From assembly GCF_050943825.1 (NCBI RefSeq), contig NZ_JBMNPX010000010.1, positions 7,771-71,770 of the forward strand: 64,000 nt of DNA. Reading direction: 5' to 3'. Below, in pieces: positions 178 to 19,581 of this stretch. This stretch comes from Pseudoflavonifractor sp. (GTDB lineage Bacteria > Bacillota > Clostridia > Oscillospirales > Oscillospiraceae). The translations under genes were made by a program, and so were the position numbers. How positions within the stretch are numbered: position 1 is the first letter of the stretch; each line of letters starts with the position of its first letter. The notes under the pieces are model-generated. The model made no database searches. It was not told where the DNA came from and saw nothing but the letters and a program-made list of their open reading frames with translations.

Positions 178-268
178 CTTGAATGGCATTCAAGAGGTCA
201 GCGGTTCGATCCCGCTTATCTCCACCAAAAAGGCTTGAAATCGTAAGATTTCAGGCCTTTTTTCTTTT
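178..268 (+). repeat. att-like direct repeat: 3' 50 nt of tRNA-Ala(GGC) plus downstream terminator hairpin
   Basis: 178-227 is identical to 19337-19386 (CTTGAATGGCATTCAAG...TCTCCACCA). Similarity continues through aggc(t/c)tgaaatcgtaagatttcagg(c/t)cttt. The acceptor 5' strand, D-arm and promoter are missing. Confidence 0.9.
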
Positions 269-655: not shown

Positions 656-1915
656 ATGTCGATGATCGAGCGAGCGGAAAAGTTAAAGGATTTTATCAAC
701 TGTGCTTATGGTGAAGAGTTTAGAGAGTATTACTACGGCAAGTTCTTCACCGGAAGTATGAGCTTTACGGAAGATGACGAATCCTGCACGATTTACCTTG
801 AGCGGGGCGTGGTGACGAAGGTGGAAACGGGCCTCCCTGAGGGCGGAATTGACATTGGTCTGGCCGGAACCAAAAAGGGCTGGGATATGTGGGCGCCCTG
901 CCGCCGCAGCCTGTCCATTGTGTGCTACCAGATCCGTCAGGGCGGAAACCCGGAGGACTTTAAGACCATCGGCGAGCCCATCCGTTACCGCCAGAACAAC
1001 AACGCCCTGGCCCAGGCCGGACGGCTCTACTCCTATATCCGCGACGGCGTGACCCCTGGGAGCGATATGCCCAAGCGGGATGAGAGCAAGCCGGTGCCGC
1101 CTGACGGAGACGTGGCGATCCGCGGCTTCTATAAGCGCATCAACGGAGTCAAGATCTACTTTGAGACCAACGACGCCCCAGATGACAAGGCCACGCTGCT
1201 GTGCCTCCATACCGCAGGCCGTGAGAACCGCCAGTATCACGACATGATGGAGATTTTCAAGGACAAGTACCGGATGTATTCCGTGGACATGCCCGGTCAC
1301 GGAAAGAGCTGGCCTCTGCCCGGCAACAACGTAATCAATAACTACAAGGAATACGGCAAGTGGATTTGGGACTGTGTGGAGGCCCTGGGCCTGGAGAACC
1401 CCATCGTCATTGGCTGCTCCATGGCCGGCGGCATTACCTATCATATTGCCCAGGAGCACCCGGTGCGGGGCATCGTGTGCATGCAGGGCAATGACAACAC
1501 CGAGGACGGGATGGGCAATGTCCGCGAGATGCTCTTCCATCCCTATGTCTGCCCCCAGCATTCCCATCTGGAATTTACCGAGTCCCTGGTGGGGACCAGA
1601 ACCAGCCAGGATCGGGTGGACTTCATCAACTGGGGCGCTCTCTGCGAAATCGGCAAAATCAAGCAGGGCGACCTGACCGAGACCGGTACCTTCAACGTGA
1701 GCGACAAGATGGACCGCATCACCTGCCCGGTTATGATTATTGAGGGCATCGACGACCAGGCCTACACCGCCGAAATGGCTCAGGCCAGTCTGGACCGGCT
1801 TGTTAACTGCAAGAACAAGCGGATGAAGCTCTATGAGGGCTACGGCCACTTCATTGCCGTGGAAAATCCCGAGGCTGTCTGCGAGGCGCTTGACGAATTC
1901 ATCCAGTCTATCTGA
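656..1915 (+). CDS. Alpha/beta-fold hydrolase with an extra ~130-aa N-terminal domain (possibly SCP2-like)
   Basis: RBS GGAGG. Motifs LCLHTAG, VDMPGHGKS, nucleophile elbow GCSMAG, acid EGIDD and C-terminal GYGHF. The N-terminal domain assignment is tentative. Confidence 0.85.
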   Translation: MSMIERAEKLKDFINCAYGEEFREYYYGKFFTGSMSFTEDDESCTIYLERGVVTKVETGLPEGGIDIGLAGTKKGWDMWAPCRRSLSIVCYQIRQGGNPEDFKTIGEPIRYRQNNNALAQAGRLYSYIRDGVTPGSDMPKRDESKPVPPDGDVAIRGFYKRINGVKIYFETNDAPDDKATLLCLHTAGRENRQYHDMMEIFKDKYRMYSVDMPGHGKSWPLPGNNVINNYKEYGKWIWDCVEALGLENPIVIGCSMAGGITYHIAQEHPVRGIVCMQGNDNTEDGMGNVREMLFHPYVCPQHSHLEFTESLVGTRTSQDRVDFINWGALCEIGKIKQGDLTETGTFNVSDKMDRITCPVMIIEGIDDQAYTAEMAQASLDRLVNCKNKRMKLYEGYGHFIAVENPEAVCEALDEFIQSI

Positions 1916-1928
1916 TAGGAGTCGAATT

Positions 1929-3359
1929 ATGAGTATTGGAATTACAGGAACAGGCGTATATGTTCCGTACTACTATATAAAAAGAGAGACCATTGGCCGC
2001 CAGTGGGATGCCAAGGGCGCCAAGGGAGAGCGGAGCCTGTGCAACGCCGATGAGGACAGCGTGACCATGGCGGCGGAGGCCGCCATCAACTGCCTGGCAG
2101 GTCAGGACCGGGAGGCAGTTGACGGACTGTACTTTGCTTCTACCACCGCCCCCTATGCCGAAAAGTCCCACGCTTCCATTCTGGCCAAGGTCTGCGACCT
2201 GGCGGATTCCTGCCAGATTGCCGATTTCCTGGCCTCCACAAGAGCAGGCGTAAGCGCGGTAAAGGCGGCTTACAGCGCCGTGAAGGCCGGCATGTGCAAA
2301 AATGTGCTGGTGACCAGCGCAGATCAGCGAAACGGCTATCCCAAGTCCCAGCTGGAGCAGATGTTCGGCGATGCCGGTGCCGCCCTGATGGTGGGCACCC
2401 AGGATGTGGTGGCGTCCATCGAGGCGTTTGAGACGGTGAACGTGGAAATTCACGACGCCTGGAGAAACATCAAGGACGACTATGTGCGCACCGGTGAGAG
2501 CCGCTTTGTCAAGAGCAAGGGGTACACCTACGCCCTTGTGCGGGCCCTGAAGCAGCTGATGGCGTCTCAGTCCCTTACGCCGGATGATGTGACCAAGCTG
2601 ATTTTGCCCTCCACTTCCGCCAAGGACCACCTGGGTGTGGCCAAGGCCCTGGGTATCAGCCCGGAGAAGGTACAGGACCCCCTGCTGACGAACATCGGCG
2701 ATTGCGGAACCGCCCAGCCCCTGCTGCTTTTGGCGGCGGCGCTGGACGAGGCCAAGCCCGGCGACCTGATTCTCTGGTCCGCTTACGGCAGCGGAGCCGA
2801 GGCAGTTTTGCTGAAGGTGACGGAGCATGTGGAACATCTGCGGAACAAGGGCTTGATTCACAAGTATCTGTCCACCCGCCACGAGCTGACCGGTTATCCT
2901 CGTTTCCTGTCCTTCCGTGGACTTATCGAGGCTGAGCCCGGTGAGCCCTATAAGATCAACCCTTCCGGTTCCCTCTACTGGCGTGAGCAGAACTGCATTC
3001 TTTCTCTCCACGGCAGCAAGTGCAAAAAGTGCGGTCAGATTATGTTCCCCATCAACAGGGTCTGTTACAGCTGCCACTCCAAGGACGAGTATGAAGAGGT
3101 CCGGCTCTATGAGCGGGAGTTCAAGCTGTTTACCTATTCCATTGACCGGCTGGCGGGACGCAGCGACGATCCCATGATTGGCCAGGCAGTAGCCGAGGAC
3201 AGCCAGGGGACCAGAATCTACATGCTGATCACCGACTTCCAGGAGAGCGACATCAAAGTCGGCATGAACCTGGAGTTCAGCTTCCGTAAGATGCACAATC
3301 TTGGCGATTTCGTAAACTATTACTGGAAGCTCAGACCCGTGCGCAGAGGGGAGGAATAA
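1929..3359 (+). CDS. HMG-CoA-synthase-like (non-catalytic, PhlA-like) domain fused to a DUF35 Zn-ribbon/OB-fold domain (PhlB/BbsA-like)
   Basis: HMGS-fold motifs DEDSVTMA, GDAGAAL and NIGDCG. C-terminal CKKC...CYSC Zn ribbon followed by an OB fold (VGMNLEFSFRK). ATG at 1929. Confidence 0.88.
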   Translation: MSIGITGTGVYVPYYYIKRETIGRQWDAKGAKGERSLCNADEDSVTMAAEAAINCLAGQDREAVDGLYFASTTAPYAEKSHASILAKVCDLADSCQIADFLASTRAGVSAVKAAYSAVKAGMCKNVLVTSADQRNGYPKSQLEQMFGDAGAALMVGTQDVVASIEAFETVNVEIHDAWRNIKDDYVRTGESRFVKSKGYTYALVRALKQLMASQSLTPDDVTKLILPSTSAKDHLGVAKALGISPEKVQDPLLTNIGDCGTAQPLLLLAAALDEAKPGDLILWSAYGSGAEAVLLKVTEHVEHLRNKGLIHKYLSTRHELTGYPRFLSFRGLIEAEPGEPYKINPSGSLYWREQNCILSLHGSKCKKCGQIMFPINRVCYSCHSKDEYEEVRLYEREFKLFTYSIDRLAGRSDDPMIGQAVAEDSQGTRIYMLITDFQESDIKVGMNLEFSFRKMHNLGDFVNYYWKLRPVRRGEE

Positions 3360-3361
3360 GG

Positions 3362-4546
3362 GTGTCTATCAAGGATAAGGTTGCAATTGTGGGAATGGGC
3401 TGTTCCAAATTCGGAGAACGATGGGACTGCGGCATTTCGGATCTGATTATTGAATCCGCTTACGAGGCGTTTGAGGATGCCCATGTAAAGCCAGAGGACA
3501 TTCAGGCTGTGTTTTTCAGCGAGGGCAACCAGCCAAACGGCGGAACGGGCGCAACTCCTGTGGCGGACACGCTCAAGCTCTCCGGCATCCCCATGATGCG
3601 CAACGAGAGCTTCTGTACCTCCGGACATGTGGCGCTGATCCAGGCGGCCATGGCCATTGCCAGCGGCGAGTACGACGTTGTCATGGCCATCGGCGTGGAG
3701 AAGCTGAAGGATACCGGTTATGGCGGCCTGGGCGTGGGCCGCGGCTGGAATCCCGTGTATGAGGCCAGAAGAACGGGCCCCGGCTCCTTTGCCATGATTG
3801 CCTCCAGATATTTTGCCAAGTACGGCCTCAGCCCCGAGGAGGGAAAGCGGCTTATCGCCAAAATCGCGGTGAAGAATCACCACAACGGTATGCTCTCACC
3901 CAAGGCACATTTCCACAAGGAACTGACTGTGGATGACGTCATGAAGGCGCCCATCATCGCCTACCCGCTGGGCCTCTTTGACTGCTGCGGCAACAGCGAC
4001 GGCTCCGCCTGCGCCATTCTCACCCGGGCGGACATGGCGGCCAAGTACACCGACAAGCCCATCTATATCAAGGGCTACGGCATGGCGGTAGACTCCACGC
4101 TGAGCCAGAGCCGCCCCAATTTTGAGTGGACAGGCTTTGACGCCCTGAAGGACTCCTCCCGTCAGGCCTACAAGATGGCCGGCATTACGAATCCCAGGGA
4201 GCAGATCGATCTGGCCGAGGTCCACGACTGCTTTACCTGCACCGAGATGATTATCTATGAGGACTTCGGCTTCAGCCAGCCAGGGCATGCGGCGGAGGAC
4301 ATTGAGTCTGGCTTTTTCGAGCGGGACGGCGGTCTGCCTGTAAATGTGGACGGCGGCCTGAAGTGCTTTGGCCACCCTGTGGGCGCCAGCGGAATCCGGA
4401 TGACGTATGAAATTTTCAAGCAGCTCCAGGGGCGCGTGGACAACCCCGCCCGTCAGATTAAGGACTGCAAGATTGGACTCTCCCACACCTTCGGCGGTTC
4501 TCCTCAGGTGAGCGCCGTGCTGATTGCGGGAAATGAACTGGGGTGA
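3362..4546 (+). CDS. SCP2-type (non-classical) thiolase
   Basis: VAIVGMG, catalytic ESFCTSG, GVEK, AVKNH, EVHDCFT, GHPVGASG. No C-terminal CxGGG. GTG start with RBS GGAGGA. Confidence 0.92.
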   Translation: MSIKDKVAIVGMGCSKFGERWDCGISDLIIESAYEAFEDAHVKPEDIQAVFFSEGNQPNGGTGATPVADTLKLSGIPMMRNESFCTSGHVALIQAAMAIASGEYDVVMAIGVEKLKDTGYGGLGVGRGWNPVYEARRTGPGSFAMIASRYFAKYGLSPEEGKRLIAKIAVKNHHNGMLSPKAHFHKELTVDDVMKAPIIAYPLGLFDCCGNSDGSACAILTRADMAAKYTDKPIYIKGYGMAVDSTLSQSRPNFEWTGFDALKDSSRQAYKMAGITNPREQIDLAEVHDCFTCTEMIIYEDFGFSQPGHAAEDIESGFFERDGGLPVNVDGGLKCFGHPVGASGIRMTYEIFKQLQGRVDNPARQIKDCKIGLSHTFGGSPQVSAVLIAGNELG

Positions 4547-4551
4547 GCGGT

Positions 4552-5739
4552 ATGAGTGAAAAAGCACTGGAAGGAATTAAGGTTCTGGATATGAGCCGGG
4601 TCCTGGCCGGCCCCCACTGCGCCGCCATACTGGCCGATCTGGGCGCGGAGGTGCTCAAAATTGAGGAACCCGGCATGGGCGATGAGGCCAGATTCCTCAG
4701 GCCCTTCTCCAACGGTGAGAGCGCCTATTACATGAACTTCAACCGGGGCAAAAAGGGAATTACCCTGAACCTGAAGAGCGGAAAGGATATTTTCCTCCAG
4801 CTGGTGAAGGACGCGGACATTCTGGTGGAGAACTTCCGGCCGGGCGTCATGGCCAGACTGGGCCTGGACTACGAGACCTTGTCCAAGCTCAATCCGGGGC
4901 TCATCTATGTGGCCATTTCCGGCTACGGCCAGAGCGGCAGCAACAGCCAGCTGCCCGGCTACGACCCCATCGCCCAGGCCATGAGCGGCATTTGCAGCGT
5001 GACCGGCTGGCCTGATGCCGAGCCCGCCAGGTGCGGCGCGCCCGTGGCCGACGTGCTGGCAGGCATCAACGGCGCGGTGGGCGCTCTGGCGGCGCTGAAC
5101 TACCGCAACCGCACCGGCAAGGGCCAGATGATTGATGTCTCACTGGTGGATGTCTCGGTCAGCGCGCTGGCCAGCCTGAACCAGGTCTACCTGTCCGAGG
5201 GCCGGGTGCCGTCCCGTCAGGGCAACGGCACGGAGGCCGCGGCGCCTGGCGGCAGCTGCCACGCCAAAGACGGCACGGTGATTTTTGCCGCCGGAAACGA
5301 CAGGCTGTGGCCCAAGCTGGCCGCGCTGATGGGCCGGCCAGAGCTGGCGGAGGACGAGCGGTTCAGCAAAAACGCCCAGCGGGTAAAGCACCGCCGGGAG
5401 CTGGAGGAGATCATTGACCAGTGGGCCGGCCAGCTTACGGCCGATGAGGTTGTGGCCCAGATGCGCAGTGTTAAAATTCCGGCCGGGCCTGTCTACACCA
5501 TTGACCAGGTCGTAAATGATGCGTGCATTGCCAAAGAGCGCAATATGTTTGTCACCATCCAGCATCCTGCGGCGGGTGAGGTGCGCATCACCAACAATCC
5601 CCTCAAGATGTCTCTGACGCCTCCCCAGGTGCAGGGCAGCTCGCCCACGCTGGGGCAGGACAACGAGAGCGTTTACGGCGGGATACTTCACATGGACAGC
5701 GCGCAGATCCGGGCGCTGAGAGAGGAAAAAATCATTTAA
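4552..5739 (+). CDS. Family III (CaiB/BaiF) CoA-transferase 1
   Basis: VLDMSRVLAGP, GAEVLKIE, ENFRPG, SGYGQSG and active-site Asp in VADVLAG. Alternative GTG start at 4543. Confidence 0.93.
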   Translation: MSEKALEGIKVLDMSRVLAGPHCAAILADLGAEVLKIEEPGMGDEARFLRPFSNGESAYYMNFNRGKKGITLNLKSGKDIFLQLVKDADILVENFRPGVMARLGLDYETLSKLNPGLIYVAISGYGQSGSNSQLPGYDPIAQAMSGICSVTGWPDAEPARCGAPVADVLAGINGAVGALAALNYRNRTGKGQMIDVSLVDVSVSALASLNQVYLSEGRVPSRQGNGTEAAAPGGSCHAKDGTVIFAAGNDRLWPKLAALMGRPELAEDERFSKNAQRVKHRRELEEIIDQWAGQLTADEVVAQMRSVKIPAGPVYTIDQVVNDACIAKERNMFVTIQHPAAGEVRITNNPLKMSLTPPQVQGSSPTLGQDNESVYGGILHMDSAQIRALREEKII

Positions 5740-5759
5740 GGCGAAGAGAGGCGAGGTAA

Positions 5760-7088
5760 ATGAAAAAAGCGAAAAAAGGCTTTCTCGGCTGGTACATGGT
5801 CATTCTGGCCAGCCTGATCACCACCTTCTCCGGCAACTTCGGCAGCAACGCCCAGGGCGTGGCCAACACACTGATGATGACGAGCCCGGAAAACACCGTA
5901 ACCCAGGTGGCGTATGGACTCTCATGGACCATTACCCAGATTGTGGCCGCGTTGGGCGGCCTGCTGATGGGCTCCTTCGTTGACAGATTCGGCGCAAAGA
6001 AAATGTTTATTGTGGGCAGCCTTCTGTCCATTCTCTCCGGCTTTGTGCTGGTGCAGTTCCAGGCGGGCAGCTCCCTGATGTTCCTGTTCAACTACGGCTT
6101 TGTGGTGGCGCTGAGCTACCAGTGCGTGTCCTTCGTGACCACCCAGTCGGTTGTCAGCAACTGGCTCCAGAAGCGCAGAGGCACCGGCGGCGCCATCGTC
6201 AACACCGGAACCGTTATCGCCGGTATTATTACCGCACCTATCGTGACCTGGCTCATCAACTCCGTCGGCAACGGCAACTGGAAGTATGGCTACTACTACT
6301 TCGGCGCTGCCAGCATTATCGGCCTGATTCTCTCCTTCTTCATCATTAACAAGCCTTCCGATGTGGGGCAGTATCCCGACGGCGTGGAGCCTGGCCGGGA
6401 TGCCGGAGACACGCCGAAGAAAGGACAGGCGGCAGCGGCCGTAAGCAGGGTGTTCAAAAATGTGCTGCCTGAAAATCACTACACCTTTAAGCAGGCGCTG
6501 CGCTCTCCTCTCCTGTGGGCCCTGATTGTCCTCCATGCGTGCTCCCTCTGCCTGTCCAACTATATCATGAACCCCGGCTCCCTGCTCTTTGTCCAGGCCG
6601 GCTTTGCCATGGAGACTGTGTCTACGGTGCTCTCCATCCGCCAGGTGATCCGCCTTCTGTTCCTGGCGTTCCTGATGCGTTACCTGGACAAGATTGAACC
6701 CGTTAAGCTCCTTACCTTTACCTGTGCCCTGGCCGGTGTGTGCTACCTGGTCTCCGCCAACCCCACCAGCTACTGGCAGATTCTGGTGTTTTACGCCGGC
6801 GGCAGCATTGTGATGTCCGCCCAGATGGCAATTCCCGGCGTCATGCTGGCGAATATCTTCGGCACGACCAACTTCGGCAAGATTTACGGCGCGTATTTGA
6901 TGGTGGCCACCCTGATTTCTTCCGTCTCTCCCACCATCAGCGGAACGATTGCCCAGAATACCGGATCTTATGTCATGGCAAACTACCTGTGGGCTTCCAT
7001 AGCTGTGGTTGCTCTGGTGGCCGGCCTTGTGAGCATCCGGCTCTTTAAGAAGGAGACCGGAAAGATTCTGGCTGTTACCGGGAAGTAA
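5760..7088 (+). CDS. MFS transporter
   Basis: About 12 hydrophobic segments, MFS motif A GSFVDRFGAK, NWLQKRRG and FGTTNFG. Confidence 0.9.
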   Translation: MKKAKKGFLGWYMVILASLITTFSGNFGSNAQGVANTLMMTSPENTVTQVAYGLSWTITQIVAALGGLLMGSFVDRFGAKKMFIVGSLLSILSGFVLVQFQAGSSLMFLFNYGFVVALSYQCVSFVTTQSVVSNWLQKRRGTGGAIVNTGTVIAGIITAPIVTWLINSVGNGNWKYGYYYFGAASIIGLILSFFIINKPSDVGQYPDGVEPGRDAGDTPKKGQAAAAVSRVFKNVLPENHYTFKQALRSPLLWALIVLHACSLCLSNYIMNPGSLLFVQAGFAMETVSTVLSIRQVIRLLFLAFLMRYLDKIEPVKLLTFTCALAGVCYLVSANPTSYWQILVFYAGGSIVMSAQMAIPGVMLANIFGTTNFGKIYGAYLMVATLISSVSPTISGTIAQNTGSYVMANYLWASIAVVALVAGLVSIRLFKKETGKILAVTGK

Positions 7089-7142
7089 AGAAAAACAGGC
7101 CATAGAAAGGGTCTGACTGGTTTGTATCAGGAGGAATGACAA

Positions 7143-8249
7143 ATGAGGATTATCGGCGTTGAAGCAATCCCTGTCAACATCCCCTTTGCCGGGACGATCA
7201 ACTGGAAATCCGGCCATATGGCCGGCGCGGACAACGTAGTTGTGAAAATCACCGCAGAGGACGGTACTTACGGCGTTGGAGAGGCCACTCCCCGCATCGG
7301 AATCTACGGAGAAACGCAGCAGTCCATCTACTACGTCATCAAAGATGTCCTCGCGCCCATGCTGATCGGGGAGGACTCCTTCAATCTGCAGAAGCTCTGG
7401 GACAAAATGAGCTTTGCCGTCTGGAATCCCACGGCAAAGGGCGCCATCGACATTGCGCTCTACGACCTGAACGGGCGTCTGTGCGGTCTGCCCATCTGCA
7501 AGATGCTGGGTGGTCCGTACAGAACGGAAGTCCCCCTGTCCTGGACCATGGCCGGCACCTACGGCAGTTATCAGGACCAGGTGGATGAGGTGGTGCGCAA
7601 GACCGCGGAGGGATACAGGAGCTTCAAAATCAAGACGGGCAACGGCGACGTGGACGAGGACATCCGCCTGCTCAAGGAGATGAAGGCCAACTGCCCCGAG
7701 GGCACCACTCTCTATATTGACGTCAATATGGCCTATACCCGTGAGGAGGCCTTCAAGGTACTGCGGGCGCTGGAGGGGGTTATTTCCTGCGCGGAGGAGC
7801 CGCTGCCCAGCACGGACAACGAGGGCCGCGCGGCCCTGGCCAAAGCCACGTCCGTCCCCATTCTCAGCGATGAGAGCACCATCACCGTCAATGACGTCTA
7901 CCGGCAGATCCAGCTGGGCGCCATCAGCCGTGTGGGCATCAAGCTGCCCCGGACCGGTTTCTTCCTCTCCACCAAGATTGTGCACCTGGCGGAAAGCGCA
8001 AACCTGCCCTGCCAGATCAGCACCCAGCTGGAGAGCGATCTGGGTACCGCCAACTGCGTGCAGCTTGCAGCCGCCTTCAAACAGATATCCCTGCCCTGTG
8101 AGATCGCATTCTATGACGAGAACTTCAGTGCGTCTCTCATCAAGAAGCCTCTGGTTATTCAAAACGGCTGCCTGCCGCTCCCCGATGGGCCGGGCAGCGG
8201 CGTAGAGATTGACTGGGACAGCGTGGACAAATATCGGGTAAAAATCTGA
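7143..8249 (+). CDS. Enolase-superfamily enzyme, muconate-lactonising (MLE) subgroup
   Basis: GVGEA, AIDIALYD, KxK (FKIKTG), metal ligands DVN / EEP / DES, second Lys GIKL and PDGPGSG. Confidence 0.9.
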   Translation: MRIIGVEAIPVNIPFAGTINWKSGHMAGADNVVVKITAEDGTYGVGEATPRIGIYGETQQSIYYVIKDVLAPMLIGEDSFNLQKLWDKMSFAVWNPTAKGAIDIALYDLNGRLCGLPICKMLGGPYRTEVPLSWTMAGTYGSYQDQVDEVVRKTAEGYRSFKIKTGNGDVDEDIRLLKEMKANCPEGTTLYIDVNMAYTREEAFKVLRALEGVISCAEEPLPSTDNEGRAALAKATSVPILSDESTITVNDVYRQIQLGAISRVGIKLPRTGFFLSTKIVHLAESANLPCQISTQLESDLGTANCVQLAAAFKQISLPCEIAFYDENFSASLIKKPLVIQNGCLPLPDGPGSGVEIDWDSVDKYRVKI

Positions 8250-8267
8250 GCGCCGCCTCTGCCCAGT

Positions 8268-8310
8268 CCCCCGGGCTGTCTGACAGCCCGGGGGCGGCGG
8301 CTTGTTTTTG
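8268..8310 (+). terminator. Intrinsic terminator ending the hydrolase-to-enolase operon
   Basis: Perfect 13-bp arms cccccgggctgtc / gacagcccggggg (8268-8294), followed by cttgtttttg. Confidence 0.75.
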
Positions 8311-8364
8311 CACGGGGGTTGTGCTATCTTCTTTTTACTTATTTGTTTGAAAGGAGTGCACTCT

Positions 8365-9981
8365 GTGGGAATTTCTGCTTTGCGGCTCAAGGAGCTGTTT
8401 GAGGACAGGCTTTCTCTTCGCCTGAAGGCCGGAGAGGCAGGCATGGGGCGCGTGGTGGAGAAGCTTGCCGTCATGGAGACGGAGGACTTTTATCTGGGAG
8501 CAGAGCCGCGGGGGATGTTTGTGCTGACAACCCTCTCTTTTGTGCAGAAGGACGGGGCCGGGATGGAAGCAGTCATAGGCTTGATACGGGCAGGTGTATC
8601 CGTCCTCGGGGTAAAAATCAACCGGTACTTCAACGAAATCCCCCGTGATATTGTTGACGTGGCAGACCAGTACGGGATTCCGCTGTTTGAAATTGGATCC
8701 GATATACACTTCAGCAATGTCATCCGGCTGATTACCGAGGAAATTGTTATGGAGTCCGCCGGAGGCAAAGACGAGACAGCGAGCAGGCATGCACAGCTTC
8801 TGCGGAAGTATATGAATGATGAGCCATTGGAAGCAATTCTCGGCTCTCTGGGGGAAATGATAGGCGCGTCCTGCTTCTTCATTGATGTCCAGAGCCGTAT
8901 TCTGGCCAGCTATCAATTTCCGCAGCGCGCTTCAAACCGGAACATTTCCCTTCTTGGGAATAAGCTGCTGAAAAAAAGCCTGAACTATGGCAGAAAAAAG
9001 CACTGCTTTTATGACGAAAAGGATGCTGTGTTTCTCTGCCAGGCAGGTGAAACTCTTTTGGGTGTGCTGGTCATTATGGATCAGGGGCAGCTGCCCAGGG
9101 AGTGCGAAGAGGTGGTTTGGCAGGCGCTGTCATATATAGTGGTGCGGGTATGTGAGCAGCGGATCACAGAGCGCCAGAGCGCGATGGATCAAGGCAGCGG
9201 CCTGTTGGATCAGGTGCTTTTTCAGCAGCAGCGGGAGGGCGCGGTCATCCGAAATCACCTGAAAAACGGTGGATTTGAGCTACTGGACCGGTATACGTTC
9301 ATTGTTGTGGCGCGAAGGGAGACTGGCGGCGGTGAGGTAAGCTCCGCACCTATGGAATACTGTGGGGCGCAGCTCAGGAACTGCTTTGAGCGGTGCATTA
9401 TAAAGTGGGATAGTCACGGCATAAAGTGCTTGATCACCTTTCCGAAAGACAGTTCCATGGCCCAAAGCGGAGTGCTGGCAGACCGGATGATCGCATTCAG
9501 GAACCAATATCTCTCGTCGGACGAGCACTTTTTTGACATTGGATTGAGCCTGGTACAGGAGGATCCCTGTGAGATAACAAGGAGCTTTCTTCAGGCCCAG
9601 GCCGCAATTGAGCACGGAAGAATATACAGGCCAGAAAAGCATATTTACGACTATGCGGCATTTTTGGTCCAGGGTCTCCTCCATCAGGCGCAGGGTACCC
9701 AGGAGTACAACTGGCTCTGTCAGAATGTTGTGGAGCCGATCAGCGAGCGGGACCGTCTATATGAGAGCGGACTGTGGGAGACCCTTGATGTGCTTTTCCG
9801 CGTACGCTCCCTGAAGGTGGCCGCCAACGACCTGCATATTCATATCAGTACGCTCAGGTATCGCCTGCAAAAGGTAAAAGACGTTACGGGGCTTGATTTC
9901 CTTACGGCATACGGGAATTATGTGCTCCATACGGCCTATTTAATATGGATGGAGAACAATATCCGATATGGAAGCGAGTGA
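8365..9981 (+). CDS. PucR/CdaR-family transcriptional regulator
   Basis: N-terminal PucR sensor domain (GIPLFEIG..FSNVI) and C-terminal HTH (AANDLHIHISTLRYRLQK). GTG at 8365 with RBS AAGGAG. Confidence 0.9.
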   Translation: MGISALRLKELFEDRLSLRLKAGEAGMGRVVEKLAVMETEDFYLGAEPRGMFVLTTLSFVQKDGAGMEAVIGLIRAGVSVLGVKINRYFNEIPRDIVDVADQYGIPLFEIGSDIHFSNVIRLITEEIVMESAGGKDETASRHAQLLRKYMNDEPLEAILGSLGEMIGASCFFIDVQSRILASYQFPQRASNRNISLLGNKLLKKSLNYGRKKHCFYDEKDAVFLCQAGETLLGVLVIMDQGQLPRECEEVVWQALSYIVVRVCEQRITERQSAMDQGSGLLDQVLFQQQREGAVIRNHLKNGGFELLDRYTFIVVARRETGGGEVSSAPMEYCGAQLRNCFERCIIKWDSHGIKCLITFPKDSSMAQSGVLADRMIAFRNQYLSSDEHFFDIGLSLVQEDPCEITRSFLQAQAAIEHGRIYRPEKHIYDYAAFLVQGLLHQAQGTQEYNWLCQNVVEPISERDRLYESGLWETLDVLFRVRSLKVAANDLHIHISTLRYRLQKVKDVTGLDFLTAYGNYVLHTAYLIWMENNIRYGSE

Positions 9982-10006
9982 CCCGCAACTGCCATGGAGG
10001 AGTTTT

Positions 10007-11350
10007 ATGGTAGGCAATCAGAGAGAACTGAAGGACTACAAAGTATGGACAAAAGCAAAATTTTGGCTGTTCAGCTGCATAGGTATTCTAATCTTTGTTG
10101 TTCCGATTTCCATTGACGGCGTAAGCCAGATTGGCCTTGTCCACATTGGCAACCGGATTACGGCATTGCTGGGTTCCGCCGCAGACTATATTATCTATGC
10201 ATTTGCTGTATGGGGCGTAATTTTAATCTTCAAAGAACGCAAAAAGAGGTTTAAAGGGTTTTTCAATATCCTGATGAGCGCACTCTCTCTGCTGGGCATT
10301 GTGTGCATGACTCTGTATATCTTTGGAGCCGCCCCGGACTTCCTTGCGGACGAGCGGTTTATGCCATTCATTATGGACCAGGTACTCTATCCCACCCTGC
10401 TTTATACCGGGATTTCACCCTTGTTTATGCCGTTTTTGCTTAACTCCGGCCTGCTGGAATTTGTAGGTGTTGCGCTTCGCCCCCTGCTCCGTCCGGTCTT
10501 CAAGCTGCCGGGCAGAGCGGCGGTTATCACAGTTTCCGCCTTTTTCGGCTCTGCACCGGTCGGAATCGTGGTGGTGGACAACCTCTATAAAGACGGACGC
10601 TTTACCTATAAGGAGGCGTTTCTGATGGGAACCGGATTTGCCACCACAGCCATCTCCTTTATGGTAATTCTCAGCGATCTGGGCGGAATCTCGGACTACT
10701 GGGGACTGTATCTCTTTGCGTGCCTTCTGGGTCTGGCCGTAATTGCAATTCTGCAGGTGCGCATTTATCCCACCAGTAAAATACCTGAGAGCACCTACAA
10801 CGGTATGGAATATGTACAGGAGACGGAGGGGAAGAAGGGCGGAATACTCATCAAGAGAATGCTGTTGGCGGGATATGAACGGGCGGAATCTATGGAGCAT
10901 TTGGGGAAAGAGTGCCTTGGAATGCTGAAGACCTCCGGCAAGCTGCTGGGCAATATTATGGCCAGCACCTGCGGCATGGTAGTGGTGGGACTGGTGCTGA
11001 ATTACTACACTCCGCTGCTGGACATTCTGGGGTATTTGTTTTATCCATTTGCCCTCCTGGCTGGGCTGGCAGACCCTCTGACAGTGGGGAAAGGAGCCGC
11101 CTCGGCGCTTCTCGTGCCCTCTCTTCCGGCGGTATATGCAGGAACAGCAGGAGCTCTGGCCTCCAAGGTGGTTCTGTGCGCAATGCCGGTTCTGGGCATT
11201 ATCAGCATTCCGCTGACCATGCCGGTATTTTTCAACTCTGCGGTGAAATATACCGCAAAAGACCTGTTTATTGTCTACGTGGAGCGCATGATTCTTACCA
11301 TTTTGATTGTTGCGGTCATTGTCCACGGATATGTATGGCTCTTTATGTGA
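10007..11350 (+). CDS. YjiH-family (gate-domain) membrane transporter
   Basis: Multi-TM protein with LLEFVG..LRPLLRPVFKLPGRAA and F GSAPVG motifs. ATG at 10007 with RBS GGAGG. Confidence 0.8.
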   Translation: MVGNQRELKDYKVWTKAKFWLFSCIGILIFVVPISIDGVSQIGLVHIGNRITALLGSAADYIIYAFAVWGVILIFKERKKRFKGFFNILMSALSLLGIVCMTLYIFGAAPDFLADERFMPFIMDQVLYPTLLYTGISPLFMPFLLNSGLLEFVGVALRPLLRPVFKLPGRAAVITVSAFFGSAPVGIVVVDNLYKDGRFTYKEAFLMGTGFATTAISFMVILSDLGGISDYWGLYLFACLLGLAVIAILQVRIYPTSKIPESTYNGMEYVQETEGKKGGILIKRMLLAGYERAESMEHLGKECLGMLKTSGKLLGNIMASTCGMVVVGLVLNYYTPLLDILGYLFYPFALLAGLADPLTVGKGAASALLVPSLPAVYAGTAGALASKVVLCAMPVLGIISIPLTMPVFFNSAVKYTAKDLFIVYVERMILTILIVAVIVHGYVWLFM

Positions 11351-11364
11351 GAGGCGGTGGCAAG

Positions 11365-12576
11365 ATGAAAGACATTTTACCGGACGTCCCCAGAGGGGCG
11401 CTGGAGGGGCTTAATGTTTTGGATTTGGGGCGCATGGTGGCCGCCCCTTACTGTGCCATGATGCTTGCCAATCTGGGCGCCCATGTTATTAAAATTGAGG
11501 AGCCCGGAGGAGGAGATATTTCCCGGGAAAGCATGCCCAAAAAGGACGGAGAGAGCACATACTATATCAATTATAACTGCAGTAAGTATAGCCTGACGCT
11601 AAACCTGAAGCATGAAGAGGGAAAGCGTATTCTTGCAAAGCTGATAGAAAAAGCTGACGTCCTGGTAGAAAATTTTCGGCCCGGCGTAATGAAGCGGCTG
11701 GGTTTTTCTTATGAAGCGGCTGCAAAAATAAATCCAGGTCTCATTTACGTCTCCATATCCGGCTATGGACAGTCCGGACAACTGGCGGATCGGGCTGCCT
11801 TTGATCCGATTGCTCAGGCCATGAGCGGAATAACCAGCATTACCGGAGAGCCCGATGGGGAGCCCGTCAGGTGCGGCGCATCTATTGCAGACGTGCTTGC
11901 TGGACAGAACGCAGCTTTTGCCGTTCTCGCAGCACTGAGATACCGGGAGCAATGCGGAAAAGGTCAATGGATTGACATCGCGCTGGCGGATTCGTGCATT
12001 TCCGCTATGACCGGTATAAATCAGATCTATCTGACCGAAGGGCGGATTCCCGGACCTTTGGGCAACGGTTTTGCGGCCAACGCGCCAGGAAACGCATACC
12101 ACTGCAAAGATGGGAAGATTATGCTGCTGGCAGGACGAAACAGCGAGTGGGAACGGCTGGCCAAGGTGCTGGGCTGTCCTCAGTGGCTGGAGCGGGAGGA
12201 ATTTTCCGATGTGGCCGCCAGAACCAGAAACAGAGACTTGCTTGACCGCACCATCGACCAGGAGACGCGAAAGTATACTGTGGAGGAACTGCTGTCTAAG
12301 TTCCTTGACGCGAGGCTGCCTGCAGGAGAGATCTATAATGTAAAGCAGGTGGTAGAGCACCCTCACTTCAACAAGGAACGAAATATGTTTGTGGACGTGG
12401 AACATCCCAGGCTGGGCAGCCTGAAGGTCACCAATCTGCCCATACATATGTCGGAGACCCCACCTAAAATGTACAAGTGTGCGCCCTGTTTGGGAGAGGA
12501 CACCGATAAAATTTTAGCTCAGTTGGGCTATGATACGGAGGAAATCTCCACATTGCGCAGAGACCATGTGATTTAA
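11365..12576 (+). CDS. Family III (CaiB/BaiF) CoA-transferase 2
   Basis: VLDLGRMVAAP, ENFRPG, SGYGQSG, IADVLAG. ATG at 11365; the ORF-track upstream extension overlaps the previous gene. Confidence 0.93.
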   Translation: MKDILPDVPRGALEGLNVLDLGRMVAAPYCAMMLANLGAHVIKIEEPGGGDISRESMPKKDGESTYYINYNCSKYSLTLNLKHEEGKRILAKLIEKADVLVENFRPGVMKRLGFSYEAAAKINPGLIYVSISGYGQSGQLADRAAFDPIAQAMSGITSITGEPDGEPVRCGASIADVLAGQNAAFAVLAALRYREQCGKGQWIDIALADSCISAMTGINQIYLTEGRIPGPLGNGFAANAPGNAYHCKDGKIMLLAGRNSEWERLAKVLGCPQWLEREEFSDVAARTRNRDLLDRTIDQETRKYTVEELLSKFLDARLPAGEIYNVKQVVEHPHFNKERNMFVDVEHPRLGSLKVTNLPIHMSETPPKMYKCAPCLGEDTDKILAQLGYDTEEISTLRRDHVI

Positions 12577-12706: not shown

Positions 12707-12740
12707 AAGGAGCTGCCTCTTGTGGGAGGCAGCTCCTTTC
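12707..12740. terminator. Terminator hairpin between convergent genes
   Basis: aaggagctgcctc / gaggcagctcctt 13-bp stem. Confidence 0.7.
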
Positions 12741-12745
12741 TTTCG

Positions 12746-14365
12746 TTATCCAGCGTATCGAATTGCGATATCCATGGTCTCGGTAAGGCCGGCTTCCAAA
12801 CTGGTGATATATACCGTAACAACAGTATTCTCAGCAGCGGAGTTCATAACATAGAAACCCAGCGTGAGGTAGTCACCGACTGCAAGGTAACGAGTGTCCG
12901 TTTCCGATGTAGAAATCAAGTAATACTTCGTGATGCATTCCGGCTTTACATACCCTTGGGCAGTGATATCGCTTTTGGCGATGTTTGCATCGGCATCAGG
13001 ATAGACGTAGATGTTGCCGATAACGTCAAGGCCATTGCTCGTATAGTGGGCAGAATCCTTGCTGGTGAATTTGGTGCCTTTGTCGGTATACCAAACCTGT
13101 GCCAGGCGGTAATACTCCGGGCTGGGAGACACGTAGTAGACTGGCTCGTTGTCGGTATCCAGACGGAAATTAGCGGTTTCGCCTTCGGCAGGGCGCCGCT
13201 CAAAGACCCTGATCTGCACGGAAAAAATCATTTCGCTATCAGCATCGGTGCTGTTGTCATAGACCACAGCAGCACCGCCGGATTTCTTGGCGGTGATGTT
13301 GGCACGGTGATCATCGATATTAGTGACAGCCGCAATATCGCTCTGGAAAGATTTCCACTTTCCAATTTTAACAAAGCCGCAGTCCTCAGAGTTCAGCGAA
13401 AATGTATCACCGGGGAACAAATTGATTTCCAGAGTGGTGCTGCGCACAGTCATCTTGGGGTTGAATGTGGTGGTCATCACACCGATGATACCGTTGCCCA
13501 GGTCCACATAGACCTGCTGCTCTACCACGTCATCCCCGACAGCCATCTCCGTGCCGGCCGGAATTAACCCTTTGGAACTTTTGCCCGGGCGGACCTGAGT
13601 ATCATTGACGCCGGGAGCAATCGTTTCGAACGCCTCCTTGACGGAAATGGGTTCATCCTTCACGACAATGCCGCCGGGGAGGGTAAGCTCCGTTCCACTC
13701 TGGCCGCTGGAGGAGCTGTCAGAAGAATCGCCTCCGTTCAGCTTCTGGTCCATGCGCATAAAAACAGTTGCCGCCTCTGCTCGGGTCAGCTCCTTGTTGG
13801 GATTAAAATTGCCTGCAGAGTCGCCCGCCATCAGGCCAATGGCCTGCATATACTTGACGCCTTCCAGCGCCCAGGAAGGGATTGCCGCAATATCATTGAA
13901 TGCCGCAGAATTCCCATCCTCTTCGAGGTCTGCGTTGATGCTGTGGAGGTAATTGGAGAGGATAACCGCGATTTGAGCACGAGTCACAACAGAATTGGGG
14001 CTGAAGGTATTCGCGCCGGTGCCGGAAACATACCCCTGCTCATAGGCCCAGTCAATGGCGTCCGCATACCAGTCAGAGGGCTGCACATCGCTGAAGCTGG
14101 CGTCCTTGGCCGAGGATACGTCCGCCTTCGCCACGTTGCTTAAAACCACCACAATCATGCCGCGGGTCATAGGCGTTGAGGGCGAGAAGGTGCCGGCCCC
14201 GGTGCCCGAAAACATTCCGTGGCTCACGGCGTAGTCCACGGCCTGGGAGTACCAGGCGTCATCGGGCACGTCGGTAAATGCTGCGGCGTGAGCGGCTGTA
14301 CTGGCTGCGGCAATATTGACCGTCATGGCTCCCGCCAGCAAAAGACTGGCAATCTTTCTTTTCAT
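12746..14365 (-). CDS. Secreted SLH-domain surface protein
   Basis: Signal peptide MKRKIASLLLAG, three N-terminal SLH repeats (FTDV...WY; MTRGM; VTRAQ; LTRAE), Ser/Gly linker and an unknown C-terminal region. Confidence 0.9.
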   Translation of the reverse strand: MKRKIASLLLAGAMTVNIAAASTAAHAAAFTDVPDDAWYSQAVDYAVSHGMFSGTGAGTFSPSTPMTRGMIVVVLSNVAKADVSSAKDASFSDVQPSDWYADAIDWAYEQGYVSGTGANTFSPNSVVTRAQIAVILSNYLHSINADLEEDGNSAAFNDIAAIPSWALEGVKYMQAIGLMAGDSAGNFNPNKELTRAEAATVFMRMDQKLNGGDSSDSSSSGQSGTELTLPGGIVVKDEPISVKEAFETIAPGVNDTQVRPGKSSKGLIPAGTEMAVGDDVVEQQVYVDLGNGIIGVMTTTFNPKMTVRSTTLEINLFPGDTFSLNSEDCGFVKIGKWKSFQSDIAAVTNIDDHRANITAKKSGGAAVVYDNSTDADSEMIFSVQIRVFERRPAEGETANFRLDTDNEPVYYVSPSPEYYRLAQVWYTDKGTKFTSKDSAHYTSNGLDVIGNIYVYPDADANIAKSDITAQGYVKPECITKYYLISTSETDTRYLAVGDYLTLGFYVMNSAAENTVVTVYITSLEAGLTETMDIAIRYAG

Positions 14366-14658
14366 GAATCCTCTCTCCTTACTTGAAAATGTTTTTGAGG
14401 GCCCGCCCTCGGGATAACGCAGCAACAATATACGGAAGGTTACAAGCTGCAGAAACGTTTTCCCTTGCTGAACATATATCTTACCACACTGGGGATTTGT
14501 ATGTAAATGCCTTTCAGAGAGCAGCTTTTTGCTGCAGCAGCCCTCTGAGTCTGTATTGCAGCAATTTTACATGTTTGATATACTGTAAGTGCAAAAAACA
14601 AGAGATTTGATGCCATCTGTTGACGCTGGATACCAATAGAGTGACGGGGGGTTATACG

Positions 14659-16635
14659 ATGAAACGCTGTATCGCCTGCTTTCTGTGTCTGCTGCTCTGC
14701 ATCGCGGCCTTGCCTGTAACGGCAGCGGGGGCGTCCGCGCCGTCCGCCTGGGCGGAAGCTGAGGTAAAGGAGGCCATATCCATCGGCTTTGTGCCGGAGG
14801 AGCTCCAGTCGAACTACCAGCAGGACATCACCCGGGAGGAGTTTGCCCAGCTGGCTGTCCGGCTGTGTATGGCACAGCTTCGCTATGTGGGGAGCCCGGA
14901 GCAGTTTCTGGAGGACTACCGGCGCTACTATCGGGATAAGGAGGGAAATCCGGCCGGTGCTGTCCCGACAGAGTTCTCCGACGCCGCGCCCTGGGGGACC
15001 GCGGCCTCTGCCCTGGGGATTGTCCAGGGGCGGGGAGACGGCACCTTTGACCCGGATGGGCTCATCACCCGTCAGGAGGCGGCGGCCATGGTGGCACGCA
15101 CCTACCTGGCCTATTCCGGTCAGACCGCTCTGACGGAACCCGGCAGCGGTCCGGCCTATGGGGATGCAGATCAGTTCCCCGACTGGGCGGCGGAAGCCAT
15201 CGGCTGGCTGAGGTATCAGGCCGTCATGGAAGGGGACAACTACGGAAATTTCCTGCCCCAGAGCCATCTGACCCGGGAACAGGCCATCCTCATCTTCCTG
15301 CGGCTGGCAAGGGAGGTGTACACCCGGGAAATCGGGCTGGTGCCCTATGAAGAGGAGCTGGAGCGCATCCTGTTTCCGGCAGAGGGCGATTTCAGCCTGA
15401 CGAAGATGGTGGAGAGCGAAAGTGCCGCGGCTATACAGGGGATAGAGGCGGACGGCACAGCCGTGCTCTGGGTGGTGTACCGGACCGGCGGACGGACCGA
15501 GCTGTACGGCAGGCTGGAGAAAGAAATTCCGGGTATCACCGCGGTGGATATCCTGTCTCTGGATGACCAGGGCCTTGCGCTGGGCGCAGCTGGGGAGCTG
15601 GGGATGTATGTCCGCTGGTTTTCCCTGTGGGGCAGCATCTACACCTCCATGACGCAGGTCCTGAACCCGCAGCCTGCTCTGGACGGCATGGCCGTCACGG
15701 GCTTTGACGGGACCTATGTGTTTGCGTCGGAGGCGGACGGCATGGCCGTCTATGACCTGACGGGGCGGCGGATCTTCTCCGCTCCGCCGGGGACGGTGAC
15801 CTGGCAGAAGGAGGGCGGCGTGTTCCGCCACGAGGGCGCCGGCGGCGTCATGTACTATACGGCGGAGGGGCAGCCCTTCCGCCAGACGCCCTGGGCCGCA
15901 GGAACCGATTTCTGTATCGGTCAGGCCGCCGTACAGGAGGAGGCGGGCGGCCCCATCACGGTGCTCAACACCCTCGGTGAGACCCTCAATACCCTGGACA
16001 GCTTTGGCGGTACCATCGCGGACTGTTCCATGGGGTGTGGCTGGCTGCTGTTGGCCAAGGACGGCCGCCATTACCTCCTCAGCATAGGTGACGGCAGCCT
16101 GTTCGGCGGGGAATACCTGGATGTGGGGCCCTTTGTGGGCACCCATGCGGCGGTGCGCACCAAGGATGGCTGGGGATTTATCGACCAGTTCTTCCAGAAT
16201 ACCATCTCGTGCCAGTATCAGGCGGTGTATCCGTTCAACCATATTCAGGCAGTGGTGCAGCAGTCCGACGGGACCTTTACCACGGTGGATGCCCACGGGA
16301 AGGGCGGCACCATAGGCTCCGGCTGGACGGCGCTTACACCGCTTACCATCCAGGGGTATGCCCTGGGTGTCCGGACAGGAGAGGACGGGACGGCCCAGAC
16401 CATGCTGATATCCTTGGTGGCTCCACCGGCGCCTCTGCCGGGGGAGCGGTCGGAATACGCACTGTACGGCGCCACAGCGGTGCGCACAGCGGGCGGAGAA
16501 GTCAGCCTCTTCGGCAAGGGCGGCGCCCAGGTGTTTCCGGAGCTGGACCTGGAAGGGGCATGGGGTACGGCGGACAGCGCCGCGGTGCTGCTGAAGACAG
16601 ACGGGCGGTATTACCTCTACAACCCGCCCAGATAA
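14659..16635 (+). CDS. Secreted SLH-domain protein with WG-repeat-like C-terminal region
   Basis: Signal peptide MKRCIACFLCLLL, SLH motifs (ITREEFA, ITRQEAA, LTREQA) and repeats such as DGWGFID / DGRHYLL / DGRYYLY. Confidence 0.85.
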   Translation: MKRCIACFLCLLLCIAALPVTAAGASAPSAWAEAEVKEAISIGFVPEELQSNYQQDITREEFAQLAVRLCMAQLRYVGSPEQFLEDYRRYYRDKEGNPAGAVPTEFSDAAPWGTAASALGIVQGRGDGTFDPDGLITRQEAAAMVARTYLAYSGQTALTEPGSGPAYGDADQFPDWAAEAIGWLRYQAVMEGDNYGNFLPQSHLTREQAILIFLRLAREVYTREIGLVPYEEELERILFPAEGDFSLTKMVESESAAAIQGIEADGTAVLWVVYRTGGRTELYGRLEKEIPGITAVDILSLDDQGLALGAAGELGMYVRWFSLWGSIYTSMTQVLNPQPALDGMAVTGFDGTYVFASEADGMAVYDLTGRRIFSAPPGTVTWQKEGGVFRHEGAGGVMYYTAEGQPFRQTPWAAGTDFCIGQAAVQEEAGGPITVLNTLGETLNTLDSFGGTIADCSMGCGWLLLAKDGRHYLLSIGDGSLFGGEYLDVGPFVGTHAAVRTKDGWGFIDQFFQNTISCQYQAVYPFNHIQAVVQQSDGTFTTVDAHGKGGTIGSGWTALTPLTIQGYALGVRTGEDGTAQTMLISLVAPPAPLPGERSEYALYGATAVRTAGGEVSLFGKGGAQVFPELDLEGAWGTADSAAVLLKTDGRYYLYNPPR

Positions 16636-19037: not shown

Positions 19038-19251
19038 GATAGGCGCTCCTTTCTGACGCACGGCCCGGAGCATATCAAATGCCGGGCTTATGGTGTCGGG
19101 TTTCCTGCATTCCCAGAACATTATATCATATAAAAAGGGAAGCGGGAGAGAAACGCCGTACTGCAGCCGCCGGAAATTGTGCTGCGCCGCTGGGCAGCAG
19201 CTGTCACAGCGGATTGCCCGAGAGAAAAATAGGGAAATTTTAAATTTTCAG

Positions 19252-19310: not shown

Positions 19311-19386
<76 letters not shown>

Positions 19387-19581
19387 AAAAAGGCCTGAAA
19401 TCGTAAGATTTCAGGTCTTTTTCTTTTTTGAAATTGAAACAGAGAATATAACTCAGCTGCCCGGCGGACTCAAGGGAGCAGCCCGCTTTCTTGCCGGGAT
19501 ATATGAAGACGCCGCCCGTAATCCGGTTGGGCGGCGCCTTTTTTAAATGAATTTATGAAATCTCGTTCCGCTTTTATGCAC

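Follow-up and report, generated by a model that had tools for sequence, protein, structure and literature searches.

The 64,000-nt stretch of Pseudoflavonifractor sp. DNA analysed here (contig NZ_JBMNPX010000010.1; hereafter the window, at its full length) carries close to its left end nine tightly packed + strand genes spanning positions 656-12576, two of which are the subject of this report: one encodes a fold of the 3-hydroxy-3-methylglutaryl-coenzyme A (HMG-CoA) synthase (HMGS) type fused to a DUF35 domain, and the other, adjacent to it, an SCP2-type thiolase. An original prediction, made by eye, took them for a two-gene complex with a PhlA-PhlB fusion and a PhlC-type partner, that is, an acyltransferase of the Friedel-Crafts kind. 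They are read here as probably forming a thiolase of catabolism that works together with an inert scaffold.

The N-terminal part of the fusion (residues 1-334) scores 231.8 bits against NF003274, the NCBIfam model of archaeal-type HMG-CoA synthase, and just misses its cut-off of 244; the score against TIGR00748 is 178, which does not reach the cut-off of 353. A DUF35 match (6esq_E, 1.1e-10) covers residues 351-471. The original prediction held that the catalytic Glu, Cys and His of the HMGS fold had become Thr, Thr and Pro, and a HMMER alignment to the active archaeal HMGS 6esq_I agrees, placing Glu at Thr72 (ASTTAPY vs GSESHPY), Cys at Thr104 (LASTRAG vs EFACKAG) and His at Pro227 (LILPSTS vs CVFHQPN). 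The alignment adds a fourth position, absent from that prediction, at which the Asn of the catalytic tetrad is Asp258 (NIGDCGT vs YLGNTYS). None of the catalytic residues is thus retained in a proper alignment, and since the whole tetrad is replaced no HMG-CoA synthesis is expected from the fusion, whose HMGS-like part is, to judge from its residues, catalytically dead. PhlA has Cys, Gly, Gln and Asp at the same E-C-H-N positions.

Loss of the tetrad is a property of the family. Across 32 relatives of the fusion (48-83% identity) the Glu position is nearly always Thr, the Cys position is T, L or P, and the His position is P, T, S or A. The zinc ribbon and OB fold, predicted to be intact, proved so by the DUF35 match and by four zinc cysteines (C365, C368, C379 and C382) which are kept here and do not vary in any of the relatives. 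About 30 residues, many of them charged (including the motifs DED, PYAxK, AD, DxWR and RF), are likewise invariant; they are largely common to the active archaeal HMGS and to PhlA, which argues for an inherited fold, interface or CoA chamber and not for a new active site.

Both domains are visible in an AlphaFold2 model of the fusion (predicted local distance difference test score, pLDDT, 85; predicted template modelling score, pTM, 0.89), and its best structural match is archaeal HMGS (template modelling score on the target, TM, 0.89; 2.2 Å; 28% identity). The model also superposes on PhlA (target TM 0.86-0.87) and on MucA (0.83-0.85), the archaeal enzyme being no less close than PhlA.

The thiolase exceeds the cut-off of NF004810 (510 bits against 403) and has intact catalytic motifs, namely Cys85 (FCTSG), His288-Asp-Cys290-Phe (HDCF) and Gly-His338-Pro (GHP); their retention, claimed before, is confirmed by alignment, and they are invariant in 26 of 26 relatives from the same clade of the family (clade A, see below). 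Its best sequence match is the archaeal thiolase (206 bits), with PhlC orthologs at 134-148 bits and BbsB at 140. At the HDxF site the window thiolase reads AEVHDCF and the PhlC ortholog 9skh_I AQVYDLL, the His being lost in the latter, and the acceptor-binding and proton-shuttle residues of PhlC (His56, Thr132, Asp137 and His144) align to a gap, Trp, Glu and Gly. The BbsB equivalog model gives 150.9 bits for the thiolase (cut-off 750), and the BbsA model 25.8 bits (cut-off 250). On these sequence features the 394-aa thiolase is proposed as the catalytic subunit.

Complexes of this kind have been compared by Liao et al. (Nat Commun 2026; PMC12960953), who solved the structure of MucABC and set it against PhlACB and the archaeal complex. 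The acylase thiolase-like subunits PhlC and MucB both lack the HDxF histidine, which separates acylases from thiolytic complexes, and MucB is inactive by itself, its partners being needed (PMC12960953). Secondary-metabolism genes are lacking at 1,001 of the 1,030 bacterial loci that combine HMGS, thiolase and DUF35 (PMC12960953). Most relevant to the present case is PfACAT/HMGS-DUF35 of P. fluorescens, where a fused HMGS-DUF35 without the tetrad accompanies a thiolase with Cys, HDxF and GHx; in vitro acetoacetyl-CoA is thiolytically cleaved, neither HMG-CoA nor acetoacetyl-CoA is formed, and the substitution H294Y in the HDxF motif of PfACAT nearly eliminates the cleavage (PMC12960953). This pair was tested as a complex and not as the thiolase alone, so that the outcome comes near, though not literally, to full activity of the lone thiolase on acetoacetyl-CoA, which the original prediction had named as telling against itself (PMC12960953). 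The authors regard the fused class as an evolutionary intermediate 'not yet recruited into a defined pathway' (PMC12960953).

Like PfACAT/HMGS-DUF35, the window pair combines a fused tetrad-less HMGS-DUF35 with an adjacent Cys/HDxF/GHx thiolase, and no polyketide synthase (PKS) or nonribosomal peptide synthetase (NRPS) is found among its neighbours; this likeness is one of architecture and of residue pattern as published. With PhlACB (PpATase, 5m3k/5mg5) and MucABC (SmaATase, 9vbo) the pair shares a homologous three-part architecture, the DUF35 zinc ribbon/OB fold, a dead HMGS-like subunit whose Asn position is occupied by Asp and a thiolase-like subunit with a nucleophilic Cys; it differs from both in that its DUF35 is fused to the HMGS-like part, its thiolase keeps the HDxF His as well as the Cys, and its context is catabolic, whereas theirs is antibiotic biosynthesis. 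The archaeal thiolase/HMGS/DUF35 complex provides the best structural match to the HMGS-like domain and the best sequence match to the thiolase, and has a DUF35 too, yet in the window the HMGS tetrad is gone, DUF35 is fused and a mevalonate-pathway context is missing. The benzoylsuccinyl-CoA thiolase BbsAB (7pxp) of anaerobic toluene degradation is, as here, an SCP2-type HDxF thiolase needing a DUF35 zinc-finger partner, and works with the family III CoA-transferase BbsEF (9fn0), the succinyl-CoA released re-entering the transferase step; unlike the fusion, BbsA has no HMGS-like domain, and the window operon has no dehydrogenase or hydratase genes. Because the architecture is that of PfACAT/HMGS-DUF35, the HDxF His is kept, the PhlC residues are missing and the archaeal thiolase is closer, the window pair is assigned, by sequence, to the thiolytic PfACAT/HMGS-DUF35 class and not to the Friedel-Crafts class. 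The type of gene pair is already known (2026); the operon context is the new part.

Relatives of the fusion number at least 517 among GTDB species representatives; separately, 503 clusters at 50% identity (E <= 1e-30) were counted, nearly all with proteins 460-490 aa long. Gene context was taken from 80 fetched loci (median fusion-thiolase gap 17 nt); a thiolase (58-80% identity) lies directly 3' of the fusion in 78, the remaining two being cut by contig ends. At each of these 78 loci conservation is higher in the thiolase (mean identity 66%) than in the fusion (47%), the pattern expected of a catalytic subunit and its scaffold partner. In a maximum-likelihood tree of 66 fusions there are two clades (support 100/100 and 100/97), and the split coincides with gene context. 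Clade B, from Desulfobacterales, Syntrophaceae, Dehalococcoidia and others (38 loci), is set in beta-oxidation/B12-mutase operons, its neighbours being enoyl-CoA hydratase (25 of the 38 loci), a methylmalonyl-CoA-mutase-like enzyme (20), acyl-CoA dehydrogenase (19), MeaB (13), the B12 subunit of the mutase (12), 3-hydroxyacyl-CoA dehydrogenase (12), a carboxyltransferase (9) and an epimerase (7). The window falls in clade A, where fusion, thiolase and CoA-transferase follow one another in this order at all loci with enough flank.

Were the pair a C-acyltransferase of the PhlABC/MucABC type, an acetyl group borne by Cys85 would be moved to or from a phenolic or dione acceptor, and thiolysis by CoA would not be physiological. 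The subunit set is identical, the tetrad is lost as in PhlA down to the Asp at the Asn position, and PhlA is, narrowly, the top PDB sequence match of the fusion (119 vs 110 bits). Friedel-Crafts chemistry is made very improbable by the thiolase, which keeps the HDxF His lost in PhlC and MucB, does not conserve His56, Thr132 and His144 of PhlC, and stands nearer to the archaeal enzyme than to PhlC; moreover, the structure of the fusion resembles archaeal HMGS at least as closely as it does PhlA, a CoA-transferase is co-transcribed with the pair, neither PKS nor NRPS occurs in the neighbourhood, and the published fused homolog is thiolytic (PMC12960953). The two-gene complex first proposed thus survives in part: the pair appears to be a relative of the PhlABC and archaeal complexes with a dead HMGS part and a catalytic thiolase, but, with its HDxF His kept, not one of Friedel-Crafts type. 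Acyl transfer to an unusual acceptor, or C-deacylation of aromatic ketones, which had also been suggested, finds no support in the same residues, the catabolic neighbours and the thiolytic homolog. Nor is occurrence outside Pseudomonas a novelty, MucABC of Streptococcus being a characterised PhlABC homolog.

The dead HMGS-like domain might instead have gained a new catalytic or substrate-delivery role, such as binding a distal carboxylate or the acyl end, or docking a pathway enzyme on a shared CoA chamber, in which case the complex would do more than simple thiolysis. Its roughly 30 invariant and often charged residues would suit such a role, as would the retention of the fusion beside the thiolase in hundreds of lineages and the inactivity of MucB without partners; however, most of the invariant residues also occur in active archaeal HMGS and PhlA and so look inherited, the old Cys and His positions are variable, and the fusion evolves faster than the thiolase at all 78 loci, which leaves the idea improbable. 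Hardly credible is a biosynthetic use, with the thiolase condensing acyl-CoAs to acetoacetyl-CoA or a longer 3-oxoacyl-CoA and the CoA-transferase freeing the 3-oxo acid product. Although thiolase reactions are reversible and the complex descends from an archaeal condensing one, an active HMGS or a reductase that would draw the unfavourable condensation forward is lacking, importers and a PucR-type catabolic regulator belong to the operon, the sister clade B sits in beta-oxidation operons, and the Pseudomonas homolog made no detectable acetoacetyl-CoA from acetyl-CoA (PMC12960953).

The preferred reading, to which a probability of about 0.8 is given, is of a heteromeric thiolase complex that serves degradation and in which the partner of the thiolase is an inert scaffold. 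Cys85 would act as the acyl-accepting nucleophile, HDCF would provide His288 and the acid/base Cys290, and GHP His338; a 3-oxoacyl-CoA would be split by the thiolase with free CoA, giving acetyl-CoA and a shortened acyl-CoA. The fusion would carry out no condensation and would serve as an obligatory scaffold, a role that PhlA+PhlB and MucA+MucC have toward their thiolase-like subunits, and is probably part of the CoA-binding chamber. Since the fused type has been shown to be thiolytic (PMC12960953), the pair is not to be pursued as a new Friedel-Crafts biocatalyst.

Table 1. Features in and beside the window. Coordinates are window positions unless stated otherwise; domains of the fusion are given by residue.
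Feature	Position	Strand	Remarks
Partial tRNA-Ala(GGC) copy with downstream hairpin	178-268	+	92 nt, 95.7% to 3' part of intact gene
SCP2-like domain + alpha/beta hydrolase	656-1915	+	SCP2-like domain ~1-130 (nt 656-1045); hydrolase ~160-419; Ser255, Asp367, His398
HMGS-like::DUF35 fusion	1929-3359	+	476 aa
Fusion, HMGS-like domain	residues ~1-334 (nt 1929-2930)	+	matches archaeal-type HMG-CoA synthase model
Fusion, linker	residues 341-354		low confidence in AlphaFold2 model
Fusion, zinc ribbon	residues 362-386 (nt 3012-3086)		Pfam zf-ChsH2; OB fold follows to residue ~470
SCP2-type thiolase	3362-4546	+	394 aa; GTG start; begins 2 nt after fusion gene
Family III CoA-transferase CoAT1	4543-5739	+	catalytic Asp141 present, conserved
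MFS transporter	5760-7088	+	
Enolase-superfamily MR/MLE enzyme, muconate-lactonizing subgroup	7143-8249	+	KxK (K162/K164), three metal ligands (D193, E218, D243) and second Lys (K267) conserved
PucR-family transcription regulator	8302-9981	+	start codon uncertain
Membrane protein, 'Gate' (nucleoside-recognition) domain	9968-11350	+	probably second carrier
Second family III CoA-transferase CoAT2	11383-12576	+	
Strong hairpin terminator	12707-12738		14-bp stem; closes operon
SLH-domain protein, upstream flank	contig 5512-7197 (upstream of window)	-	562 aa
SLH-domain protein, downstream flank	12749-14428	-	560 aa
SLH protein	14620-16632	+	
SLH protein	17109-19121	-	
Intact tRNA-Ala(GGC) gene	19311-19386		repeat including hairpin region 19311-19427; ~19 kb from copy

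The neighbours of the pair are catabolic: hydrolase, CoA-transferases, carriers, MR/MLE enzyme and PucR regulator (Table 1). The start of CoAT1 overlaps the thiolase stop (GTGA, 4543-4546), and its nearest relatives are succinate-glutarate and succinyl-CoA:mesaconate CoA-transferases, YfdE, SUGCT and formyl-CoA transferase, the closest characterised ones using dicarboxylates with succinyl-CoA, or oxalate/formyl-CoA. The best solved relative of the MR/MLE enzyme is the muconate cycloisomerase 3dg3 of Mycobacterium smegmatis (191 bits, end to end), which outscores chloromuconate cycloisomerase and racemase/epimerase members. The hydrolase has a conserved Ser-Asp-His triad and an extra N-terminal part of about 170 residues, the ~130-aa domain of which is a separate adjacent gene in most relatives and is fused to the hydrolase in the window, L003 and L039. 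This ~130-aa protein has no Pfam match, and its AlphaFold2 model (pLDDT 87) has an SCP2 fold (2cx7, TM 0.67; UbiJ-SCP2). As an analogue of muconolactone isomerase or decarboxylase it is ruled out, the modelled fold being SCP2 and not that of MIase or CMD.

Much of this set recurs in clade A. The ~130-aa protein stands beside one or two alpha/beta hydrolases in 21 of 26 loci, the MR/MLE enzyme occurs in 13 of the 26 and a PucR regulator in 18-20, a second CoA-transferase is frequent, and the catalytic residues of hydrolase, MR/MLE enzyme and CoA-transferase are conserved. The carrier differs by genome (MFS, CitMHS, TAXI-TRAP, DctPQM-TRAP, SSF or AtoE-type); carriers that change around a constant enzyme set suggest a small organic anion as substrate. 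Unlike the PfACAT/HMGS-DUF35 class as its authors see it, not yet recruited, the clade of the window member has a conserved catabolic operon. Clade A is found in Bacillota, Actinomycetota, Synergistota, Thermodesulfobacteriota and Pseudomonadota with a topology that conflicts with taxonomy, and the nearest relative of the window fusion (64% identity, gene order alike) comes from a Cellulomonas metagenome-assembled genome, all of which indicates that the operon moves horizontally. Cultured carriers include Sporomusa rhizae DSM 16652, S. aerivorans DSM 13326 and Psychrobacillus sp. OK032. At one locus (L086, relative P0054) the same enzymes are joined by a class I CoA-transferase, a MaoC pair, 3-hydroxyacyl-CoA dehydrogenase, two crotonases, methylmalonyl-CoA mutase, epimerase and carboxyltransferase, with a sigma-54 activator in control, a gene set that fits succinyl-CoA as product.

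A second alpha/beta-hydrolase paralog is present in L007, L030, L069, L071, L078 and L082 as the first hydrolase gene, 5' of the SCP2-like gene. Its nucleophile Ser is replaced by Ala (GCALGG/GAALGG), His and Asp being kept, and it may be a non-hydrolytic lyase/decarboxylase or a binding subunit; the window has the Ser form only.

The degradative thiolase complex would then take the last step of the operon route. An imported organic anion would be turned into a 3-oxo acid by the SCP2-assisted serine hydrolase, preceded, where the MR/MLE enzyme is present, by a cycloisomerase or racemase step; a family III CoA-transferase would load the acid onto CoA, with a product of thiolysis (succinyl- or acetyl-CoA) as donor, and the thiolase complex would cleave the CoA-activated 3-oxo acid. 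The proposed route has no redox step, as in the lower beta-ketoadipate pathway (CatB/CatC/CatD-PcaD/PcaIJ/PcaF), where the same order of cycloisomerase-like enzyme, serine hydrolase, CoA-transferase and thiolase is available. The hydrolase is, moreover, fused or adjacent to a small partner, as PcaC is with PcaD, and an MFS carrier is present, the muconate carrier MucK being likewise of the MFS type. The differences are that the CoA-transferase belongs to class III instead of class I, that a dead-HMGS protein accompanies a thiolase of SCP2 type, and that the small partner has an SCP2 fold; the resemblance to the beta-ketoadipate pathway is one of logic only. A 3-oxoadipate-like dicarboxylate is the leading guess for the substrate, though a tentative one. 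With similar reserve, clade A may be regarded as the dedicated thiolase of an undescribed redox-free and oxygen-independent pathway, in which an imported dicarboxylic lactone or muconate-like acid would be converted through a 3-oxoadipate-like intermediate to acetyl-CoA and succinyl-CoA, the operon having passed by horizontal transfer between bacteria of gut, rumen, sediment and soil that belong to at least five phyla.

In favour of this degradative reading are the nearest relatives of the CoA-transferase (dicarboxylate/succinyl-CoA enzymes) and of the MR/MLE enzyme (muconate cycloisomerase), together with the catabolic operons of both clades. Several points weigh against it. The assignment of the pair itself is by analogy, resting on a published complex of the same architecture, and acetoacetyl-CoA is the in-vitro substrate of the Pseudomonas homolog, while the physiological one may be another. 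No enzyme of the operon reaches curated beta-ketoadipate cut-offs: the score is 198.9 against 334.95 for muconate cycloisomerase (TIGR02534), 50 against 255.85 for PcaD (TIGR02427) and 35 against 605 for 3-oxoadipyl-CoA thiolase (NF006551). The genome has no muconolactone isomerase (PF02426), intradiol dioxygenase or methylmalonyl-CoA mutase, the MR/MLE gene is found in just 13 of the 26 clade-A loci, and the SCP2 lipid-binding fold of the small protein could mean a more hydrophobic substrate.

A literature search on such operons and on muconate/muconolactone in anaerobes or the gut found no description of the clade-A operon, which is the part worth experiment. The two operon contexts give testable handles on the physiological role of about 1,000 'orphan' loci, and a class of substrates open to screening is suggested by the conserved CoA-transferase/SCP2-hydrolase/cycloisomerase-like set. 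Were the beta-ketoadipate-like reading true, products of ring cleavage, or related lactones, that other organisms make would be within reach of strict anaerobes. Should clade A serve a dedicated pathway, the fused complexes would not be evolutionary leftovers, a view to be held only tentatively.

As to the host, the operon is accessory in its genome: none of 10 same-genus genomes has the fusion, and of 30 further relatives 29 lack it. The 92-nt tRNA-Ala copy looks, by its sequence, like an attachment (att)-type direct repeat bounding an island; the att-like repeats bracket the operon and several SLH-protein genes, and ARAGORN detects no intact tRNA upstream of the window. The operon is flanked by two paralogous SLH-domain protein genes, both on the - strand, with 86% amino-acid identity and nearly identical ends. 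No haem-copper oxidase is found in the genome, which is consistent with an anaerobe. Its SLH-domain proteins and PucR regulators, along with the missing COX1, hint at an anaerobic member of the Bacillota. A few kb upstream of the window (L002 1640-4780) lie genes for a tyrosine integrase, a RecD-like superfamily 1 (SF1) helicase and a Cro/C1-type helix-turn-helix (HTH) protein, which are probably part of an integrative element beside the operon.

Farther downstream the window encodes a 702-aa STAND NTPase with NB-ARC and TPR domains (21147-23252, - strand), and the GC-rich segment 27243-34601 contains very long overlapping open reading frames on both strands (2452 aa on the - and 2167 aa on the + strand).

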